Notes: generated from the sequence alone by a model not told the origin. Positions 43,962 through 64,000 are shown, numbered from the stretch's first letter. The stretch is DNA of 64,000 nucleotides from an uncultured virus (IMG/VR IMGVR_UViG_3300024999_000036) (IMGVR_UViG_3300024999_000036); one strand, 5' to 3'. Made by a program: numbers and translations.

Positions 43962-44267
43962 TTACTCTGGAAAATTCCATTTAATAATATCTTTTGATTT
44001 ATTGATCTCTGTTTTTTTATTAATCTGTCTAACTTCAATGTCATCTTTATCCGTATTGGATGCAGGTGTTTCATTAGTAACAACAACATTAGTATCAACA
44101 CTCTCCAATTCTTCCACAAATACATCTTCTACTTCACGTTTCCGATAAACTAAACTATCTCTTAGTATTTTTCTAATAACTTGTGATAAATTTTTTTCTT
44201 TATACTTTTCTAATTGCCTTATTAATTCTGTATCATATTCTCTGTTTAGTTTAAAAGATATTCGCAT
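43962..44267 (-). CDS. ribbon-helix-helix DNA-binding protein
   Basis: MRISFKLN...D.ELI..L....NLSQVIRKILR. Confidence 0.7.
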   Translation of the reverse strand: MRISFKLNREYDTELIRQLEKYKEKNLSQVIRKILRDSLVYRKREVEDVFVEELESVDTNVVVTNETPASNTDKDDIEVRQINKKTEINKSKDIIKWNFPE

Positions 44268-44298
44268 TTTCTCTCACTCCTTTTTGATTTAATTTTAA

Positions 44299-44352
44299 GT
44301 CTTAATAATCGTCTTATAGAACGTCTTAAATATAGTCAGTAGAATCGTCTTA
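44299..44352. repeat. 12-bp-phased GTCTTA direct repeats (operator or centromere-like)
   Basis: GTCTTA at 44299, 44311, 44323, 44347; degenerate GTCAGT at 44335. Confidence 0.75.
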
Positions 44353-44554
44353 ACTCTTAATTCAAATGTATTGTTGAATTAATTAATTTAGAATATATTT
44401 ATTATTGTCAATATATAGAAATATAAAATTCAAAAATGTCTTACTATAATATATTTATTTTATTATTCCTATTGACTACAATAAATAATTATGGTAATAT
44501 ATATCTAACAACATACATAATATATAAAATAAAAACTTAAAGGAGAGATTTTTT

Positions 44555-45424
44555 ATGACAATTACAAATAATCAAATAAACCACAATAAATACTTATCAA
44601 ATTTTAAACAGCACTTAACACTCTTATCCAAATCTATCAATACAATAAATTCATATTTATCAGATTTAAATCAATACTTCTCACTCTATACTACAATAAC
44701 ACGCAATAATGTTCAATATTATAAATCTCAAATATCTAATTTAGCATCTACGTCATTTAATAGGAAACTATCATCATTGAAACAATATAATGAATATTTA
44801 TTGTCTGAAGGTTTGATTAATGAAGTTTATATTTATAAACAGGATTTTATAAGAATACAAGATCAATCTAATCCTACAAATATATCAGAAAAAACTGTAT
44901 TAGAATTTTTAAATAATGTAAATAATAAACCTGCTACTTTTAAATCAAGGAATATAGCAATTATATATCTTATGGCTAATACAGGTATTAGAAGAGAGGA
45001 ATGTTGTGATATGATGATTAGTAATATTGTTGATAATAAGAGAATGATTTTTAAAGGAAAAGGTAATAAGGAACGTAAAGTTGCATTAAATAAGAAAGCA
45101 CAAGAAGTAATTAATGCTTATTTAATTGATAGAGCAAAAAGCAAATATGCTGATTCTGAATATTTGTTTTTATCAGAAAGAGGTAATAAATTAATAAAAG
45201 AAAGTATAAATGGTATTTTTAATTTTTATTGTACTAATGATTGTAAGGTTAAATGTCACGATCTTAGACATAACTGGTGTTCTACAATGATTGAAAAAGG
45301 TATTTTATCACCTACAGAAGTACAGAATCAGGCTGGCCATAGTTCGTACTTAATTACTAATCGCTATGTCCATGCTAGAATGGAAAGTATTGAAGAAAAA
45401 ATTTATAATTATAGTATTGGGTAA
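44555..45424 (+). CDS. tyrosine recombinase/integrase (XerC/D-like)
   Basis: SAM-like N-domain; TGIR, GKGNKER, HDLRH, GH...T.RY. Confidence 0.92.
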   Translation: MTITNNQINHNKYLSNFKQHLTLLSKSINTINSYLSDLNQYFSLYTTITRNNVQYYKSQISNLASTSFNRKLSSLKQYNEYLLSEGLINEVYIYKQDFIRIQDQSNPTNISEKTVLEFLNNVNNKPATFKSRNIAIIYLMANTGIRREECCDMMISNIVDNKRMIFKGKGNKERKVALNKKAQEVINAYLIDRAKSKYADSEYLFLSERGNKLIKESINGIFNFYCTNDCKVKCHDLRHNWCSTMIEKGILSPTEVQNQAGHSSYLITNRYVHARMESIEEKIYNYSIG

Positions 45425-53177: not shown

Positions 53178-55931
53178 TTGGCAAAATATCCACCACAAAG
53201 ATTTATATATAAAATCAATTCTACTAGATTAAGAAAATCAAAATGGAATTTAAATATTAATGTTGATGAAGCATCTGACAAAAATGAATTGGTTTCTTTA
53301 GCAGAAAGTGAATTAATTAGATTTATAGATATTATAAATAAAGTTAATACTAAATCTATATATAAAAAAGTTAATAATGTCTACAAAGATATAAATAAGA
53401 TAAAAAAATTATCTACTTCTATTGAAAATCGTAGAAAAATTAAATCATTGTATAATAAAAAATATGATTTATTATTGATAAAGGATTATGTTTGTATAGT
53501 AATAGATAACAATAAAGATTTTGATAGAATGAATGGGAAAAAATTATTTTATATTAATGGAGTTAAATTTAAACATTTACTAGGTACTCCAGGAGGGGTA
53601 AAGAAATATACAATAACTTATGTCAGTGAAAATGTTTATGATGAATTAGAAAAAAGAATAGATAATGGAAGAAATATAAATAATAAATTTATACCAGCAA
53701 AACTAGAATCATATAAATCTTTAGTTGCTTCTTCTAGTATTCCTGTGTCAGATCCAAAAGGAATACTAGTTGTAAATGATTGTATAACAAATTTTAAAGC
53801 AAATGTAATTAAAATAGATGATACTAAGTCAGAATATCCTGATATTACATATGAAAAAGATTATCCTATTGAATTAAATGATAGTGATGGTTATGGCATT
53901 ATCTCTCCAGAATTAAGTAGAAGATGGGTAAAAGAAATTAATAATGATAAAAGCATAGATGAAGAAGATAAAGAATATTTTATACCTAGTGGATATTGTC
54001 TGCGTAATTCTTTCTGTAAGGGCATGGTTTTTACCTTTGATTTTTTTTCATTTTCTGAAATAATTGCAAATAATAAATACATAGTTAAAGATGTTTGGAA
54101 TGAAGATAGAGATATTAGAAATATAGAATTAATTTTAACAACCTCAATGCTAAAATTATGGGATTCCTATGATTCACTTGAACATTATTTATCATGTTGT
54201 AATAATAATGGATATTCATTTAGTATTACAAAACATACACCTGAAGTATTGGAAAATGAACGGCATACAAATTATCAGTTTATACAATCTTTATATTTAG
54301 ATGATGAAGGTATCGAACAGTTAATTAAACCAACAATAGAAGAAATACATGATATTATTAGTAAAGATTATGGAAAAAGCATTTTATTTCTTAAAGGTAT
54401 TCATTTAGATAGTATGAATTTTGAAAATGAAGAAAATGATTTTATTAAAGCATTAATGATTGATAAAAGAATGATAGATGATCCCTTTGTTAAAAATAAA
54501 ATACATAATATGATAAAGAAGAAAATTAAAGATGCTAAGATAGGGGTATTAAAGACAAAGGCAAACTATTCTATTGTATCAGGAGATCCATTTAGTTTGT
54601 GCCAAAGTATATTTGGAATTGAAGCAACAGGGTTATTAAAAGAAGGAGAATTTTATTCTAAATACTGGAATGATTTAAATGTAAATAAAGTCGCTTGTTT
54701 TCGTGCTCCTATGACTTGTCATAATAATATTAGAATATTAAATTTAATTAATACAGATAAAGTTAATTATTGGTATAAGTATATGAAAACAGTTACAATC
54801 TTTAATTCTTGGGACACTACTGCTCATGCTCTAAATGGTCTCGATAAAGATGCAGATGCAGTATTTACCACAAATAACAAATATATCCTTAATTCTATTA
54901 AACCAACAGATGCAATATTTTGTGTACAGAAAACAGCAGATAAAATAATTCCTGAGAAAAAAGATTTTATAAAGTCAAATAAAGACGGTTTTGGTGATGA
55001 TATAGGAGTAACAACTAATCATATTACTTCTATGTTTGATGTATTAGCAAAATTTAAAGAAGGTAGTTTAGAATATAATACTGTATTAGATAGAATTATG
55101 TGTGGACAAAATTATCAGCAAAATGCGATAGATAAAATTAAAGGCATTGTTAGTAAAAAAATACCTAAAGAATGGTATGACTATCGTTCTGTTATCAGTG
55201 ATTTTGATAAAAGTATTGTAGCAAATAAAAAACCTTATTTTTTTAATTATATATATCCGTATAGAAAAAAAGTATATGATAGATATATAAGTCAAACAAA
55301 AAGTAATTGTCTTATGAGATTTGGATTAACGATAGATGAATTAATTGCTTTAGAAGATAAAACAAAAGAACAAGAAGATTTTATTAAATATTATTATTTA
55401 AAAATGCCAGTATCATTAAGTAAATCTGTAATGAATAGAATTTGTTGGAAAATTGAAGAAGAATTTGATAATTATAATTTAAATAATAGTGGTAATAGTA
55501 ACTTTGATTATTCAATATTAATGACTAATGTTAAGTATTCTAAAGGTAGATATGATGCTATTAATAAATTGTATCATGATTATATTGAAAAAACACAACA
55601 ATATTCTCAAAATATTAAAAGTAAAAGAATTGATAAAGAAGAAAGTAAGATACATAGAACAATTTTAAAAAATAGTTTTAAGAAAAAAGCATATGAGTTA
55701 TGTAGCAATACAGAAGAATTGTGTAATATTGTAATTAGTATTTGCTATAAAAATAATAACTCAAAACAATTTGCATGGGATATTTGCGGAGATGAAATTA
55801 TTAATAATTTATTAAAGAATAATAATTACAAAGTATCATACCCTATTATAAAAACAGATGGAAACATTGAGTTTGGTGGTAATAAATTTTCTATGATTAT
55901 GGAGGATATTAATGAAGATAATATTGAATGA
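53178..55931 (+). CDS. yonO: YonO-like single-subunit (double-psi beta-barrel) RNA polymerase
   Basis: 917 aa; DGYG, R..F.KG, NYQF.Q, FRAP, catalytic GLDKDAD, DIG..TN, Q..ID..KG. Confidence 0.85.
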   Translation: MAKYPPQRFIYKINSTRLRKSKWNLNINVDEASDKNELVSLAESELIRFIDIINKVNTKSIYKKVNNVYKDINKIKKLSTSIENRRKIKSLYNKKYDLLLIKDYVCIVIDNNKDFDRMNGKKLFYINGVKFKHLLGTPGGVKKYTITYVSENVYDELEKRIDNGRNINNKFIPAKLESYKSLVASSSIPVSDPKGILVVNDCITNFKANVIKIDDTKSEYPDITYEKDYPIELNDSDGYGIISPELSRRWVKEINNDKSIDEEDKEYFIPSGYCLRNSFCKGMVFTFDFFSFSEIIANNKYIVKDVWNEDRDIRNIELILTTSMLKLWDSYDSLEHYLSCCNNNGYSFSITKHTPEVLENERHTNYQFIQSLYLDDEGIEQLIKPTIEEIHDIISKDYGKSILFLKGIHLDSMNFENEENDFIKALMIDKRMIDDPFVKNKIHNMIKKKIKDAKIGVLKTKANYSIVSGDPFSLCQSIFGIEATGLLKEGEFYSKYWNDLNVNKVACFRAPMTCHNNIRILNLINTDKVNYWYKYMKTVTIFNSWDTTAHALNGLDKDADAVFTTNNKYILNSIKPTDAIFCVQKTADKIIPEKKDFIKSNKDGFGDDIGVTTNHITSMFDVLAKFKEGSLEYNTVLDRIMCGQNYQQNAIDKIKGIVSKKIPKEWYDYRSVISDFDKSIVANKKPYFFNYIYPYRKKVYDRYISQTKSNCLMRFGLTIDELIALEDKTKEQEDFIKYYYLKMPVSLSKSVMNRICWKIEEEFDNYNLNNSGNSNFDYSILMTNVKYSKGRYDAINKLYHDYIEKTQQYSQNIKSKRIDKEESKIHRTILKNSFKKKAYELCSNTEELCNIVISICYKNNNSKQFAWDICGDEIINNLLKNNNYKVSYPIIKTDGNIEFGGNKFSMIMEDINEDNIE

Positions 55932-57112: not shown

Positions 57113-57171
57113 GATAATTAGTGCAACAAAAATTTTCCGCAAAGGATTGATTAATATGATGAGTGAATCAT

Positions 57172-58596
57172 ATGGGTAAAAAGAAAAAATCGAAAATTAA
57201 GATTTCATTTGTTGGTAATAACGCAATTAATGTAACTGGTTCTATGATTTTAATAGAAACTGAATATAATAATATCCTATTAGAATGTGGATTAATACAA
57301 AGTTCAAACTCAATCAAAGATTATAAAGATAACGCAAAGCACTTTCCTTTTAAACCAAAAACTATTGATTATTTATTCATTAATCATGTTCATACAGATC
57401 ACATGGCATTAACACCTAAATTAGTTAGAGATGGTTTTAAAGGAAAAATAATAACTACAGAAATAACATCTAAATTAGCAAAACCAATGCTAAAAGATTC
57501 TGCCAATATTATTAGAAAAGATGCTGAGTATATATCTAAAAAACGTGGTGTGAAATTTGAACCTTTTTACAATGAAGATGATGTTTATAATACTTTAAAT
57601 TTAATAGAAACTTATGATTATGGAATTATACATAAACTTGATGAAAATACAAGTTTTAAATTTTTACATAATTCACATATAATTGGAGCATGTCAATTAG
57701 AATTATTTTTAAAAACAAGTACAGGACATATTGAGAAAATATTTTATACTTCTGATTTAAAAGGTAATCAAAATAAAAATTATTATGTAGAAGATACTGA
57801 GTATTGCAGTAAAGCAAATATAGTAATTAGTGAATGTACATATGGTGCGGATGAAAAGAATATTAAAGTAAATAGAATAAAAGATTTAGAAAAAATAAAT
57901 ACGGTTGTCAATCAAGTGTGTTTAATGGATAAAGGGAGAATATTAATTCCTGTATTCTCTTTATCTAGATCACAGCAATTATTAACTGATTTATATATGT
58001 TATTTGGTGAAGATAAAGATTTTAAAATTCCTATAATAATTGATTCACCTTTGATTTGGGAAATAACAAAAGTATATAAGGATACTTTGCAAGGTGAACA
58101 TAAGGAATTATTTGATAAAGTTTGTAATTGGGAAAATGTAAGGTTTATTAAAGATTATAATGAGAGTAAATTAAGTGTTGGTGATAAATTTCCTAAGATC
58201 GTATTAAGTAGTAGTGGATTTTTATTAAAAGGAAGAAGTGTTAATTATTTAAAAGAATTTATATCTGATATTAAATGTCATATTATTACAGTTGGATATT
58301 CACCTGAAGGTAGTATCGCTTTTAAGATTAAGAATGGACAAAAATTTATTACTATTGAGGGAAAAAGTTATAAAAATAAATGTGGTATTACTGTGTTGAA
58401 TAGTTTTTCTTCCCATATTGGACAGATTGAATTATTAAATTATTTAAAAGGAATTAATTGTGATAAGATTTATCTTGTACATTCGGAAGAGAAAAGTAAA
58501 TTGAGAATGAAAGAATTATTAGAAGAAGAAATAAGTAAAATGTGTAAAAGTACAAGGGTTATTTGTACTAATAAAAATTGTGTTTGTAGTTTATAA
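57172..58596 (+). CDS. MBL-fold beta-CASP metallo-hydrolase (RNase J/CPSF-like)
   Basis: VTGS, HVHTDH, HIIG, ECTYG, IPVFSL.R.Q, DSPL, FSSH, VH.E. Confidence 0.88.
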   Translation: MGKKKKSKIKISFVGNNAINVTGSMILIETEYNNILLECGLIQSSNSIKDYKDNAKHFPFKPKTIDYLFINHVHTDHMALTPKLVRDGFKGKIITTEITSKLAKPMLKDSANIIRKDAEYISKKRGVKFEPFYNEDDVYNTLNLIETYDYGIIHKLDENTSFKFLHNSHIIGACQLELFLKTSTGHIEKIFYTSDLKGNQNKNYYVEDTEYCSKANIVISECTYGADEKNIKVNRIKDLEKINTVVNQVCLMDKGRILIPVFSLSRSQQLLTDLYMLFGEDKDFKIPIIIDSPLIWEITKVYKDTLQGEHKELFDKVCNWENVRFIKDYNESKLSVGDKFPKIVLSSSGFLLKGRSVNYLKEFISDIKCHIITVGYSPEGSIAFKIKNGQKFITIEGKSYKNKCGITVLNSFSSHIGQIELLNYLKGINCDKIYLVHSEEKSKLRMKELLEEEISKMCKSTRVICTNKNCVCSL

Positions 58597-58666: not shown

Positions 58667-60019
58667 ATGGAATTTAAACGTAAAGAAAATGAATGTTTTC
58701 TTAGCTATGCAGAAAGATTATTAGTAAATAAAAAAGAGTATGATTTAGATAAAGTAGAAATTTATGAATTATTATACGCAAATCAAGTATCTTCAGATCA
58801 TGCACGTAAATGTCTAACTAACCTACAAATGACTATTGATGAACAAAAGAAATGTAATATAGTTAATCAGATATGTGATAATATTACTGAAAATAGTAAT
58901 AAAAAAGACAATAAAAATTTAGAAAATGAAGTATTGAATTCAAAATCTACTATTGAGTTAAATAAAGATAATACACAAACTAGTGAAAAATTAATTCAAA
59001 TGTCAGAACAAGATGCTAAAGATGTTAATTTTCTTTTAAAATCTCATGGTTATGATTCTAAAGTTTGGGAGTTGGTTTCTGCTAGAAATAATATATGGAA
59101 TAGTTATAGTAAAAAAGATGGTATTTTAACATTGTATTCTAGTAAGATTACGGTTAAACCTAAGACAACTAAATTTAATCCTATTTGGATTAAAGAAACA
59201 TTAGAAAATCTTGATTTAGATAGTCCAGTTATTTATATAAAACCATACAATATTTCAGGTAAAACATTAGAAATTAATCTTGCAGATGTACATATTGATA
59301 AACTTTGTAATATTGATGAAACAAGAAATGAATATTCTACGGAAATAGGTTTACAAAGATTATGGCAGGTAATATTTGATATTATAGAAAAAACTAAATT
59401 TTATGAAATTAAGAAAATTATATTCCCATTTGGTCAAGATATAGCGAATATTGATAATATGTTCAATACAACTACTAAAGGCACACCACAAGATACTGAT
59501 GTTAAATATGATGTACTATATAAATCTTTATTGAAAAATATTATTAAAATTATACATAAACTTTCTGAAATTGCTCCTGTTGAAATTATATATGTCGGAG
59601 GAAATCACGACAAATTAACTTCATTTACTATGACAGAAGCAATGTATTGGCATTTTATAAATAATGATAATGTTGAAGTAGATTCTATTTATAATAATAG
59701 AAAGTATAGACTTATAGGTGATAATTTAGTAGGATTTGCTCATGGTGCAGATGAACGTAAAAATATAATTTATTGTATGCAAAATGATGTTCCTGAATTA
59801 TGGGGTAAAGCAAAATATAGGGAATTTCATTTATCTCATTTTCATAAAGAAAAAATGATAGATGAACAAAATGGCATTATATTTAGATGGATAAGTGCAA
59901 TTTGTGGGAATGATGCTTGGACTTATAATAGTGGATATGTTGGAAGTCAAAAGAAAGCACAAGCATTTATTTGGGATGATAATAAAGGATTAGAATGTAT
60001 TATTAATAGTTATGTATAA
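58667..60019 (+). CDS. calcineurin-like metallophosphoesterase (YonJ-like)
   Basis: ADVH, GQD, GNHD, HG, HFH. Confidence 0.8.
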   Translation: MEFKRKENECFLSYAERLLVNKKEYDLDKVEIYELLYANQVSSDHARKCLTNLQMTIDEQKKCNIVNQICDNITENSNKKDNKNLENEVLNSKSTIELNKDNTQTSEKLIQMSEQDAKDVNFLLKSHGYDSKVWELVSARNNIWNSYSKKDGILTLYSSKITVKPKTTKFNPIWIKETLENLDLDSPVIYIKPYNISGKTLEINLADVHIDKLCNIDETRNEYSTEIGLQRLWQVIFDIIEKTKFYEIKKIIFPFGQDIANIDNMFNTTTKGTPQDTDVKYDVLYKSLLKNIIKIIHKLSEIAPVEIIYVGGNHDKLTSFTMTEAMYWHFINNDNVEVDSIYNNRKYRLIGDNLVGFAHGADERKNIIYCMQNDVPELWGKAKYREFHLSHFHKEKMIDEQNGIIFRWISAICGNDAWTYNSGYVGSQKKAQAFIWDDNKGLECIINSYV

Positions 60020-60049: not shown

Positions 60050-60649
60050 ATGGAAATATTAACTCCAATAAATAAAATAGTAGAAGAAATTAAACTCAAT
60101 GCTTATATAAATGAACGGACAATATATTTAAATGATGATACTATTAATGAAGATACGGAATTTATTATCAATAGAATGTTTGAAAAAATAGTAGAAAGAG
60201 ATCAAAAAAGTGGCATAAATCCTAAAGATGCAGAACCTATAATATTAAAAATTTCAAGTTATGGTGGTTCAGTTTATGCAACTTTAAGTATTATTTCTAC
60301 TATTGAAACACTTAAAGATATGGGATATAGAATTATTGGTAAAGCATATGGAATAATTTTTTCTGGTGCTTTTAAAATTTTCATCTCTTGTTCTGAACGT
60401 ATTTGTCAGAGACATACAAGATTTTTGTATCATCAGGTGCAATCTTATGAATTAGGCAATACATCAGTAGAACAATCTAAGAGAAAATTAAAAGATTTAG
60501 AGGAATTATGGCGTAGGTGTCAAGATGTTATTTTAAAATATACTAATATTACTCAAGAAACACTTGATAGTATTACAGAACATGATTTAGATGTTTCTCT
60601 TTGGCCTGAAGAAGCAATGATTCTTGGATGTATTGATAAAATTATATAA
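60050..60649 (+). CDS. ClpP-like protease
   Basis: I.L.ISSYGGSV, FSGA (Ser), FLYHQ (His), EA..LG.IDKI. Confidence 0.85.
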   Translation: MEILTPINKIVEEIKLNAYINERTIYLNDDTINEDTEFIINRMFEKIVERDQKSGINPKDAEPIILKISSYGGSVYATLSIISTIETLKDMGYRIIGKAYGIIFSGAFKIFISCSERICQRHTRFLYHQVQSYELGNTSVEQSKRKLKDLEELWRRCQDVILKYTNITQETLDSITEHDLDVSLWPEEAMILGCIDKII

Positions 60650-61115: not shown

Positions 61116-61929
61116 ATGCAATTAACAACCAAACATTATTATGATGATGAAACTTTTGAAAATGTAAAAAAATAAATTCTATATTGATGGAGAAGAATGT
61201 GACTTTGAAGTATATATGGATTTTATTAATGGGTTAGATGAATATAACGAAGATGTGATTAAAATTAGTGAAAGTCCTTATGAATATAATGATACTGATG
61301 ATAAAGATGATTGTAAATGTGAAAAATGTTATGACCATGATAATTACTGTGAGAATGGTAAATGTAGTTGTAAGGATTGTAAGGATGAATGTTGTGAAGA
61401 ATGTGAAGATGATGATGAAAGAATTGAAGGATTTGACTATGGAGAGTTGTTGGATATTTTTGTAGGTAGGATTCAAGATACTGGTGGTGACTTCTATGAA
61501 ATTAGAGAAATTTTAGATGAGTTTGCGGATATATTCATTCCTGATTATGTTGATGATGAAGATTATAATTTTGAAGATGAGATAGATGATGAGTGTGAAT
61601 GTCAAGATTGTAATGAATGTGTTGATTGTGAAAATAAAAGAGAGTGTATGGAAAATAGTGTGATAGAAGAAATTGCAGATATGATTGAAAACAGTGATAT
61701 GTGTTCAAATTGTTTAAGAAGTACACTTTATGAATTATTTGTATTAGGTAAGAAGATTGGTTGGAGTGATTGTGAAAAGGAATTAGATGATGAAGATGTA
61801 ATAAAAGATGAAAATAATAAAGTTAATAATGTTACATATAATTTAAATATAAACTTAGATAGTATGAATGGTGATGAATTATTTAAACAGATAAATGACG
61901 GATTAAAGAAAATGAGTAGGAATATTTAA
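61116..61929 (+). CDS. acidic Cys-rich protein; 5' end frameshifted in an A7 run
   Basis: RBS and ATG at 61116; main ORF 61216-61929 is in the +1 frame. Confidence 0.6.
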
Positions 61930-62041: not shown

Positions 62042-62821
62042 ATGAACATTGGTACTGATAATTTTGTTACAAGATTAAAATGTTATGGTAAAAATGGATT
62101 GAATATTTGTTCTATGCCATCTGATAAGTTTCATAAAAAAGGTAAACCTTATATTGAATGTTTTGATTATTTTAAAGAAGATAATTATGGTTTTTCTGAA
62201 GAAACTAAGGAACAATTTATAATTGAAAAAAATTATGTAAATGAATACATAACAGATATGCATGAATTATATATCTTAGGGTTGGAATATTTATTGAAAA
62301 ATTGTAGACCTAATTCTTTTGTAGAAAATAATTTTTATGATGGTATTGTTTCCAATCTTAAACAAGAAGCAAGATATTTGAATGATATACTTGGATACCA
62401 TAGAAGGAAAGATAATACAAATGGATATATATCAACATTAAAATCTTTAAGAGAAACATTAGATTTGATTAAAAAATATGACTGGCAATTGATGTATTCT
62501 GAGTATGGGGTAGAAAATCATACTAGTATTATTAATGTTTATAATGATAATTTAGATATAGCAATATCTTCAGGTAAATCAAGAGATATAATTGATCATT
62601 TAATTAGAGAAAGAGATAGTGTTAAATTAGTTACTGAAATTGCAGTATGGGAACAGAATCATGAGGGAAATATTAGAAATCATAAAGTATGGAGAACTAA
62701 TATTCCTTATAATAAAGGAATTAGTATTAGAGATAAAGATGGATTTACTGCATTACATATTGGTAATGATGAATTAGTTATAAAAGGTGATACTTTGAGT
62801 ATTATGGATAAGAAAATATAA
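62042..62821 (+). CDS. hypothetical protein
   Basis: GGAGG RBS; 259 aa; terminator-like IR 62823-62877. Confidence 0.75.
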   Translation: MNIGTDNFVTRLKCYGKNGLNICSMPSDKFHKKGKPYIECFDYFKEDNYGFSEETKEQFIIEKNYVNEYITDMHELYILGLEYLLKNCRPNSFVENNFYDGIVSNLKQEARYLNDILGYHRRKDNTNGYISTLKSLRETLDLIKKYDWQLMYSEYGVENHTSIINVYNDNLDIAISSGKSRDIIDHLIRERDSVKLVTEIAVWEQNHEGNIRNHKVWRTNIPYNKGISIRDKDGFTALHIGNDELVIKGDTLSIMDKKI

Positions 62822-62969
62822 TTTTTGTAAGTTATAAGGACATCAATTTTATTGGTGTCTTTTTATATTTACAAAATAAAATGTAACCAAAGCAAGATTT
62901 TATTAAGTTTAGATAGTGTCTTACCACTAAAAATATTGGGTCATGTCCTACCATGAGAAGGAGGCAAAT

Positions 62970-64000
62970 ATGCCAAGTTATCAGAATTTTAATTCAAATA
63001 AAAAATTTATTCCAAAAGAATTATTAAACAAAAACAGAGTTTTAACTATGTCAAATAATCGAAAGTGTGATTATTTAATTGTTGATGTAGGTAATAATTT
63101 AGCATCTATAATGGCGATTAATAATCAAGGTAATAGCAAAGATATTTTAGTAGTTAAAACATTTGAGAATAAAAAATTTTCTGAACTTGTAGATGAAGCA
63201 TATTGGTTATGTACTGAATTTGGAATAAGAATTATTTTAGCAGATATTCGTGGATCAGGATTAGGATTTATTGATACATTTAAAATTAATATTAAGCAAG
63301 ATTATATACAGATTAAAGCATTAGATGGAAATAAAATAAATCAATTTGTAAATATTAATGAGATAGTAAATGATTTAAATAATGGTGTTTTAAGATTTTT
63401 GCAAACACCAGAATTAGCAAAAAATACATATATTAAACCGTTTTTAGGATTGTCTAATATTATTGAATATCATAAAGAAACAGATAAATTAATTGATGAA
63501 GTTAATAATCTTGAAATTAAAATGAGATTAGGTAATATTGTTTTGGGTCGTTTAGATGATATTATTGGGAAAACAAGATTAAATTGTTTACTAATGTTTT
63601 ATTCTTATCCTATGAATTGTGTAGATAGTGAAAATAATACGGATAACAAACAATATGATATTGCTAAACGAATGGCACAATATGAAGTAATTCATGGTAC
63701 ATTTTATAAATATTTATTTAAATGTATAGAGAATGAGAAAATTAATGTGATTTTTTATCATAGTAATAAAAATAAGATTGAACAGTTTAAAAATATAGTT
63801 AAAGAAAATAATTTTGTTAATTTAAGTGAAAAATATATTGATAGAATTATTGTATCTAAGGATAGATTTGAAATTATATTTTTAAATAGTAGTCAAATTA
63901 GGTTTATTTATGCTAGTGATAATGCAAGAGGTTATAGATATCATTTTGCTGTAGTGGATAGAGAAATTGAAAAAGATATGTTTGATAATGTGATTGCTGG
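62970..64000 (+). CDS. terminase large subunit-like protein with reversed domain order, partial
   Basis: AAGGAGG RBS; frame open to window end; YLIVDVG and ADIRGSGLG (nuclease-like) precede IIFLNSSQI...DNARGYR...AVVD (ATPase-like). Confidence 0.6.
   Translation, partial: MPSYQNFNSNKKFIPKELLNKNRVLTMSNNRKCDYLIVDVGNNLASIMAINNQGNSKDILVVKTFENKKFSELVDEAYWLCTEFGIRIILADIRGSGLGFIDTFKINIKQDYIQIKALDGNKINQFVNINEIVNDLNNGVLRFLQTPELAKNTYIKPFLGLSNIIEYHKETDKLIDEVNNLEIKMRLGNIVLGRLDDIIGKTRLNCLLMFYSYPMNCVDSENNTDNKQYDIAKRMAQYEVIHGTFYKYLFKCIENEKINVIFYHSNKNKIEQFKNIVKENNFVNLSEKYIDRIIVSKDRFEIIFLNSSQIRFIYASDNARGYRYHFAVVDREIEKDMFDNVIA

Follow-up and report, generated by a model that had tools for sequence, protein, structure and literature searches.

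Among the hallmark proteins of tailed phages, the large terminase subunit (TerL) is the most conserved, and it is a prime protein for bacterial pattern-recognition immunity to target. The closest described relatives of the gene presented here are TerLs of the YonF type, such as YonF of SPbeta and gp019 of the Brevibacillus phage Sundance. Proteins that resemble only a part of TerL are described in PMC13601566: T4 vs.8 is a stand-alone TerL-ATPase-like protein of unknown function in which Walker A and Walker B are both present, whereas Ksap1 and Ksap2 are small, lineage-restricted, non-terminase activators of Avs2 with TerL-ATPase-like secondary structure and equally unknown function. In the same paper, Upx is modelled to thread strands of the unfolded ATPase core. 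The subject of this report is an open reading frame (ORF) at the end of a 64,000-nucleotide (nt) stretch of DNA (the window) from an uncultured virus (IMG/VR IMGVR_UViG_3300024999_000036). The gene very probably encodes a pseudoenzyme of 370 amino acids (aa) that is derived from a YonF-type TerL, has its two modules in reversed order and occupies a fixed place heading the packaging block.

Neither literature searches (judged from the search results) nor the BFVD fold search revealed a two-domain TerL paralog that is permuted or catalytically dead. The searches on permuted or paralogous terminases returned only permuted genomes, terminase structures and one unrelated paper, again as judged from the search results, and the YonF/YonG literature search yielded no functional information on packaging accessories.

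Identification and completion of the ORF

The ORF starts at position 62970 on the + strand and stays open to the window end at 64000, as had been recorded in the first-pass annotation, which was made from the window sequence alone. Contig L001 was taken as the continuation of the window, given an identical overlap of 5,442 nt with the window end (0 mismatches), and was used to complete the gene (L001 4412-5524). The window holds aa 1-343 of 370 (62970..64000, +), L001 supplies the last 27 codons before the stop, and the full protein is identical to P0001, for which the gene-caller start agrees with the start codon at 62970 (MPSYQ). The nine motifs quoted in the first-pass annotation were all recovered at their places in this frame, among them YLIVDVG (aa 35), IILADIRGSGLGFID (aa 88), LRFL (aa 141), TDKLIDEVNNLE (aa 171) and KTR (aa 201) in the N-terminal domain, and EIIFLNSSQI (aa 301), ASDNARGYR (aa 315) and AVVDRE (aa 327) in the C-terminal domain.

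Homology and fold of the two domains

Both halves of the protein were matched to TerL by sequence. With BLASTP, residues 248-352 aligned to TerL 70-175 (E 2e-4) and residues 83-208 to TerL 362-518 (E 0.08), and hhalign placed positions 8-218 of the family profile on TerL 258-519 (E 1.1e-4, probability 56%). The profile phrog_15503, which covers the ATPase half of YonF-type TerL, matched the downstream TerL at E 3.8e-42 and residues 250-344 of the permuted protein at E 6.8e-6, a weak match. The hidden Markov model (HMM) of the family was compared with 26 canonical TerLs (22 long matches from the exhaustive search described below and 4 local ones): both halves were matched in 21, always in the opposite order, and each of the other 5 was matched by one half. 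In the reciprocal search, a profile of 17 canonical TerLs gave three matching segments along the window ORF, again permuted, with 64 bits in total. The resemblance of the protein to TerL is far above chance.

An AlphaFold2 model of the full protein, built with 49 family sequences as input, had a predicted local distance difference test score (pLDDT) of 82.7. Structure matches, hhalign and residue counts assign the N-terminal domain (aa 7-220; 62988..63629, +) to the TerL-type RNase H-like nuclease fold. In VIA-align, this domain reached Z 17.1 to D6E (5oe8_A; root-mean-square deviation 2.7, 171 aligned) and Z 16.8 to residues 355-558 of T4 gp17 (3cpe_A), and its neighbours were exclusively terminases (top 14 VIA-align rows, Foldseek ranks 1-17). 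It is joined by a low-confidence interdomain linker (aa 217-228; 63618..63653, +; pLDDT <50) to the C-terminal domain (aa 227-370, of which aa 227-343 lie in the window at 63648..64000, +), which is a TerL ATPase core minus the beta1 strand and the P-loop.

The C-terminal domain, modelled alone (pLDDT 90.3), matched P74-26 TerL 37-178, PhiV-1 TerL and T4 gp17 160-286 at Z 8.8 in VIA-align, where 5 of the 6 chains at Z>=8 were TerLs (Z 8.2-8.8) and 9 of the top 11 rows were viral packaging ATPases; all 7 Foldseek matches at E<=0.001 were TerL ATPases. The core between the Walker A position and the coupling motif corresponds to residues 232-369 (Z 8.8-8.9). One non-terminase chain equalled the TerLs (Z 8.7), and Z values near 8-9 are weak when taken alone; the assignment is firm because independent sequence evidence backs them. 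Both halves had PhiV-1 TerL, as present in the Avs3 complex (8dgc_E), among their matches (Z 13.0 and 8.8), and the neighbours in the ESM Atlas, used as a lead only, were all viral TerL clusters. The aligned ranges ran from the Walker A position through to near the coupling motif, and the C-terminal domain is therefore a truncated core, without the N-terminal Q-motif segment, without beta1 and the P-loop, and without anything beyond the coupling-motif strand. The ATPase domain proposed in the first-pass annotation was thus borne out as a TerL ATPase core and not as a full domain, since the 370-aa protein holds the truncated core only.

Pfam gave no family for the protein at E<=0.1, nor even at E<=10, and the PDB sequence-profile search with the family alignment returned nothing meaningful (best E 0.63). 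The BFVD fold search returned only TerLs over about one domain (TMq <= 0.48), and the whole permuted architecture was present in no listed model.

The family was recovered at 45 unique loci, and both halves were in one frame at 32 of the 36 loci that were uncut by a contig end, which excludes an assembly chimera as the source of the unusual order. The protein fits a domain-permuted derivative: its halves come from one parent family, are swapped and lie in one conserved frame. The earlier proposal of a permuted TerL paralog is upheld by these data: each half matches TerLs in fold (Z 17.1 for the N-terminal and 8.8 for the C-terminal domain) and YonF-type TerLs in sequence, with the order reversed in 21/21 comparisons, and the possibility that the halves are not TerL-like is excluded by the same matches.

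Loss of active-site residues and purifying selection

Residues were counted in 49 aligned family members (8 truncated sequences of 57 were omitted), except for the P-loop, which was counted over all 57. Family positions were mapped to the invariant positions of the 17 canonical TerLs and to T4 gp17.

The Walker A motif of YonF-type TerL (R-G-x-x-K-[ST], with R58 and K62 invariant in the 17) has no equivalent in the family: a P-loop was found in the C-terminal domain of 0/57 members, the 3 strict P-loop pattern matches among the 57 sit in the N-terminal domain, and in the models of the window protein the Walker A region forms a continuous helix. The catalytic Glu of TerL (E155, invariant in 17/17), which was aligned here to gp17 and which we take to be E256 of the YIDE motif in the numbering of that protein, corresponds to position 331, where the family has S, T, N, K or R and an acidic residue in 0/49; in the window protein it is R331 (63960-63962, +), directly after the Walker B Asp. 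Canonical TerL has three nuclease carboxylates (D307, D371 and D512). The third, D512, is invariant in 17/17 TerLs and is replaced at family position 202 by S, T, L, G, A, N or I (D/E in 0/49), with T202 (63573-63575, +) in the window protein. The loss of the P-loop, the catalytic Glu and the third nuclease carboxylate agrees with the catalytic degeneracy, the absence of Walker A and the Arg at the Glu position that had been read from the window protein at first pass.

Other positions of the two sites are retained. The first and second nuclease Asp, D39 (63084-63086, +) and D92 (63243-63245, +), are kept in 45/49 and 48/49 members, respectively. The C-terminal domain carries an NxS motif (aa 306-308), the RG motif before Walker B (R320-G321; 63927-63932, +), in which R320 is retained in 46/49, a basic residue after this motif (R323; R or K in 49/49) and the Walker B Asp D330 (63957-63959, +; retained in 48/49).

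The ratio of nonsynonymous to synonymous substitution rates (dN/dS) was 0.33 between the permuted genes of L001 and L002. Usable dS was obtained for 341 of 465 locus pairs, which are not independent of each other; among these the median was 0.28 for the N-terminal and 0.36 for the C-terminal domain, and 0 pairs reached 1. Because the catalytic residues are lost and dN/dS is well below 1, the protein is classed as a pseudoenzyme under purifying selection and not as a decaying fragment, its inactivity being predicted from the missing catalytic residues. The isoelectric points of both domains were near neutral and uninformative.

Distribution and conserved position

The indexed search returned 57 relatives of 206-384 aa, none with a Pfam domain. 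The exhaustive profile search, over 1.84 billion representatives, returned 208 proteins at E<=1e-3; 30 of these reached E<=1e-10. The scan of species-representative genomes gave no relative, and no RNA carrying the gene was listed among 4 runs of one study.

On L001 the permuted gene is followed by a homing endonuclease gene, a YonG-like protein gene (32% protein identity to the Sundance YonG-like protein), a canonical TerL of 557 aa and the start of the portal gene. A search for a canonical terL downstream had been suggested at first pass; it lies at L001 7667-9340, about 2.1 kb downstream. This TerL is of the YonF type (45% identical to that of Sundance); the 102 phage records that it matches come from, among others, SPbeta, the Lactococcus 949 group and phages of Bacillus and Clostridium. 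The phages that carry the permuted gene are uncultivated large phages of the SPbeta/c-st-like group.

The same arrangement recurs across the loci, with the YonG-like/TerL/portal module 1-2 kb downstream of the permuted gene: a YonG-like gene was downstream in 19 of the 20 loci with >=3.5 kb of downstream sequence, a homing-endonuclease-like ORF stood between the permuted gene and yonG in 15 of these 20, and TerL was downstream, always on the same strand, in all 14 loci with >=5.5 kb. At one locus (L049 1557-3182) the canonical TerL is broken into three ORFs in a row (profile positions 51-149, 153-263 and 267-578), which could come from frameshifts, introns or sequencing errors.

The ORF is preceded, 5 nt 5' of its ATG, by the Shine-Dalgarno sequence AGGAGG (62959..62964, +; read from the sequence). 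The preceding gene stops at 62821 and is set apart from the ORF by a terminator-like hairpin with a T run (62836..62862, +; 1 site vs 0.1 expected in shuffles), which suggests that the ORF opens a new transcription unit.

Exchange of the yonG-terL cassette

Protein identities were compared across 13 loci, where the permuted proteins were 56%-97% identical and the TerLs 22%-100%. TerL identity tracked that of YonG (Spearman 0.55) and not that of the portal (0.11), which would fit a YonG-like protein acting as a specific partner of TerL, possibly as the small terminase. The DNA of L015 and L016 is 96.7% identical over the upstream gene, the permuted gene and the endonuclease, shows no similarity over yonG and terL, and is 88.3% identical from the portal on. 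The yonG-terL pair is exchanged here as one cassette (L015 3543-6322 vs L016 3753-6322), and likewise in L001/L002, L020/L022 and L023/L025. In L023/L025 the permuted gene alone is conserved, as a 1.2-kb DNA island at 93.9% identity with dissimilar flanks.

Separate domains, mini-proteins and origin

The N-terminal and the C-terminal domain were each also found as a separate ORF. The C-terminal domain is fused to unrelated N-termini in P0063-P0067, and the N-terminal domain to another C-terminus in P0061. By eye, about 93 of the 150 listed matches of the exhaustive search were <=200 aa long and held the C-terminal domain only. They belong to a large family of stand-alone, P-loop-less TerL ATPase cores of ~100-170 aa (P0082-P0201, L052 5564-6073) with the motif NGS ... 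ARG.[RK].H..[IV][IV]D, for which neither Pfam nor PHROGs has a dedicated family. Eighteen relatives (12 stand-alone mini-proteins plus fusion and short forms) were scanned: 16 matched only phrog_15503, weakly, one matched the nuclease-half profile phrog_24618, one matched nothing, and none reached the Pfam threshold. Several of the mini-proteins are encoded by complete genes, and the contigs concerned reach 149 kb.

The genomic context of the mini-proteins was sought in several ways. Alignment A2 proved too divergent to be used in a locus scan; no match came from viral contigs with P0083 and P0089, or from metagenome contigs with A5. Among the GenBank phages, P0120 matched only the ATPase domains of YonF-type TerLs and P0110 matched nothing; P0203 matched TerL ATPase regions only. 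P0206, in L052, lies among ORFs that were read, from their translations only, as anaerobic ribonucleotide reductase, ligase and dUTPase.

A 303-aa protein, P0162, combines a YonG-like fragment (14.9 bits) with an N-terminal domain of the permuted type (41.3 bits); this apparent fusion hints at a functional link between the two and, as a single weak case, was given no weight. Intein-like inserts were observed within Walker A (after the Lys) of the related YonF-type TerLs P0090, P0142 and P0165, and P0185 starts inside such an insert.

The permuted gene may have arisen by fusion of two terL pieces that were duplicated separately, the origin preferred here, or by classical tandem duplication followed by truncation. 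The Walker A intein site is also the boundary at which the C-terminal domain and the mini-proteins begin, and, speculatively, endonuclease-induced breaks at this site may have made the ATPase fragment.

Function of the permuted protein

The reading tentatively favoured, as a possibility held with reserve, is that the protein is a non-enzymatic TerL look-alike that serves as an accessory in the phage's own DNA packaging. It would be produced together with the packaging genes; its dead nuclease domain, with the two metal-binding Asp retained, would bind DNA, or its ATPase core, with the RG/R motif retained beside Walker B, would bind generic motor surfaces, and such generic contacts would serve whichever TerL cassette the phage carries. 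This role is favoured mainly because the gene holds a fixed position heading the packaging block. Several observations weigh against it. Characterised relatives have no counterpart of the gene: tblastn gave no match in 50,697 records of GenBank phages, megablast against GenBank phages gave none, and the syntenic place in Sundance contains no counterpart either. One half is absent at 4/36 uncut loci (two with the N-terminal half only, two with the C-terminal half only), and P0206, the only stand-alone relative of the C-terminal domain with recovered context, sits among genes of nucleotide metabolism and not of packaging. The identity of the permuted protein is poorly correlated with that of TerL, YonG or portal (Spearman 0.30-0.37): in 16 of 78 pairs the permuted proteins were >=70% and the TerLs <35% identical (the reverse in 4 pairs), and in L015/L016 they were 97% and 25% identical, respectively. 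A specific co-evolving contact with any of these three proteins is therefore unlikely, and the decoupling, as judged from sequence identities, argues against a TerL-specific regulator. The proximity of the gene to terL may also stem simply from local duplication.

The N-only form at one of the truncated loci is probably secondary and caused by a transposon; a TnpB-like ORF (L042 1453-2727; 424 aa, with a CPVCG Zn-finger motif seen by eye) directly follows it.

Counter-defence was weighed as another, unlikely, role: a harmless TerL look-alike, made when TerL appears, would absorb or mislead terminase sensors (Avs1-3, Upx or Firmicute equivalents). Such a mimic would account for generic TerL folds being kept without catalytic residues and independently of the TerL cassette present, and for the patchy, lineage-specific spread, with domains lost, gained and re-fused as in arms-race genes; the structural matches of both halves to the TerL of the Avs3 complex point the same way. 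The stand-alone TerL-ATPase-like vs.8 and Ksap1/2 activate Avs2, and a possible anti-defence role is proposed for them in PMC13601566. In that paper, however, SeAvs3 and EcAvs2 read the active-site residues of TerL and the bound ATP, whereas the permuted protein has no P-loop; Upx is modelled threading beta1, beta4, beta5 and beta6, of which beta1 is missing from the present models, as is the part after the coupling motif; and sensor binding normally triggers the sensor in the assays described. The missing active-site features argue against a simple Avs2/3 decoy. Moreover, no terminase decoy was found in the literature searches, judged from the search results, and dN/dS gave no sign of positive selection. 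Directed instead at rival phages, the protein might act as a poison subunit, a dead TerL fragment whose trans-acting RG/R motif lets it enter or cap their terminase rings and block packaging. R320, the presumed equivalent of the trans-acting Arg finger (R139 of P74-26), and the basic residue at 323 are retained in a protein that has lost its nucleotide site, the gene is independent of the resident TerL type, and the element, which carries an integrase, is probably temperate. The gene nevertheless heads a late packaging block behind a terminator-like hairpin and does not lie in a recognisable lysogeny or early region; therefore such a poison would meet the phage's own TerL too, and this role is considered improbable.

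A remaining enzymatic activity was given equally little credence. The third or fourth ligand differs among enzymes of the RNase H fold, and a non-canonical nuclease (e.g. a structure-specific nickase, or one for concatemer debranching) could use D39, D92 and another acid, with the ATPase-like domain as a DNA-binding or regulatory appendage; the near-universal retention of both Asp and the invariance of D58, E83, H168, E170 and E177 in the family would suit it. Yet the third carboxylate, invariant in the TerLs, is acidic in none of the 49 members, and T171 and E177 are common TerL features and not new ones (T481 and E487 are invariant in TerLs). The converse proposal, that the gene now lacks a function and is a remnant of terL duplication, retained because it offers a conserved homology arm beside an exchangeable terminase cassette and a homing endonuclease, is in our estimation a poor prospect as well. 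It would explain the DNA island of L023/L025, the position of the permuted gene at the left edge of the yonG-terL cassette exchanged between L015 and L016, the frequent homing-endonuclease-like ORF next to the gene (15/20 loci) and the loss of a half at 4/36 loci. Against it, the 32 intact frames together with dN/dS of 0.28-0.36 and 0/341 pairs at 1 indicate selection on the protein and not on DNA alone, the ribosome-binding site is strong, and both domains have confident, compact predicted folds.

A wider proposal takes in both the permuted protein and the Walker-A-less mini-proteins, which would be either terminase mimics that neutralise or misdirect host sensors of TerL or non-catalytic, stator-like subunits that plug into any terminase motor; either way, the permuted protein would be the first functional permuted pseudo-terminase. 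This proposal is regarded as rather doubtful. The packaging accessory role stays the preferred reading. A conserved paralog that keeps both TerL folds in reversed order, with dead sites, shows that terminase domains are reused by phages in non-catalytic roles, and if the protein modulates packaging or immune sensing it would give a new handle on either process. Such paralogs could also confuse TerL-based phage classification and the prediction of terminase triggers. The analysis brought out, in addition, the broad family of P-loop-less stand-alone ATPase cores and the clean yonG-terL cassette swaps between near-identical phages.

Other features of the window

The window has ~25% G+C and 0 tRNA genes. 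At ~44000-44555 there is a strand switch with a reversal of GC skew: nearly all earlier genes are on the - strand and all later genes on the + strand, the first of these being the tyrosine integrase gene (44555-45424, +). A UvrD-type helicase gene and three ORFs of unknown function lie upstream of the permuted gene on the same strand, and genes for a beta-CASP metallo-nuclease (57163-58596, +), an Mre11-like exonuclease (58667-60019, +) and a ClpP-like protease (60050-60649, +) precede the packaging block. The exonuclease is the counterpart of Sundance gp017, which had been considered as the syntenic counterpart of the permuted gene and was rejected, being itself an Mre11-like exonuclease. A 237-aa protein without a family match (61216-61929, +) is very acidic and Cys-rich, has many CxxC pairs and has a partial counterpart in L004 and L005.

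A 917-aa protein (53178-55931, +) matched phrog_25339/8308/35857 (function unknown). Proteins of Clostridium phage c-st (44.7%), of Enterocloster phages (some of which carry the annotation RNA polymerase) and of SPbeta-like Bacillus phages are its nearest described relatives, and it may be a single-subunit phage RNA polymerase of the YonO type.

Comparison with known systems

The clamp-loader subunit delta-prime is an inactive ring-ATPase paralog that has lost nucleotide binding, keeps its fold and a trans-acting basic motif, and works as a non-catalytic partner. The permuted protein may be likened to it in logic, by analogy; delta-prime is of another ATPase class and is not permuted, and membership of the permuted protein in a ring is conjectural.

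T4 vs.8 is comparable to the C-terminal-domain mini-proteins in being a phage offshoot of the TerL ATPase that is encoded apart from terL, and differs from the permuted protein in keeping Walker A and Walker B (also seen in the vs.8 translation) and in having no nuclease-like domain. As a sequence relative of the C-terminal-domain family it was rejected (hhalign E 0.51). Ksap1 and Ksap2 are likened to the permuted protein by description only; unlike it, they come from coliphages and have a single domain, and neither permutation nor fusion to a nuclease-like domain is reported for them.

The YonF-type TerLs (SPbeta YonF, Sundance gp019 and L001 7667-9340) share with the permuted protein the same two folds, detectable sequence homology and the same genomic neighbourhood, and have in common with it the NGS, RG and T..E..NL motifs, the Walker B Asp and two nuclease Asp. 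The permuted protein differs from them in its reversed domain order and its length (370 aa vs about 560-590 aa), and in being without the Q-motif segment, beta1/P-loop, catalytic Glu, the part after the coupling motif, the third carboxylate and a Pfam terminase match.

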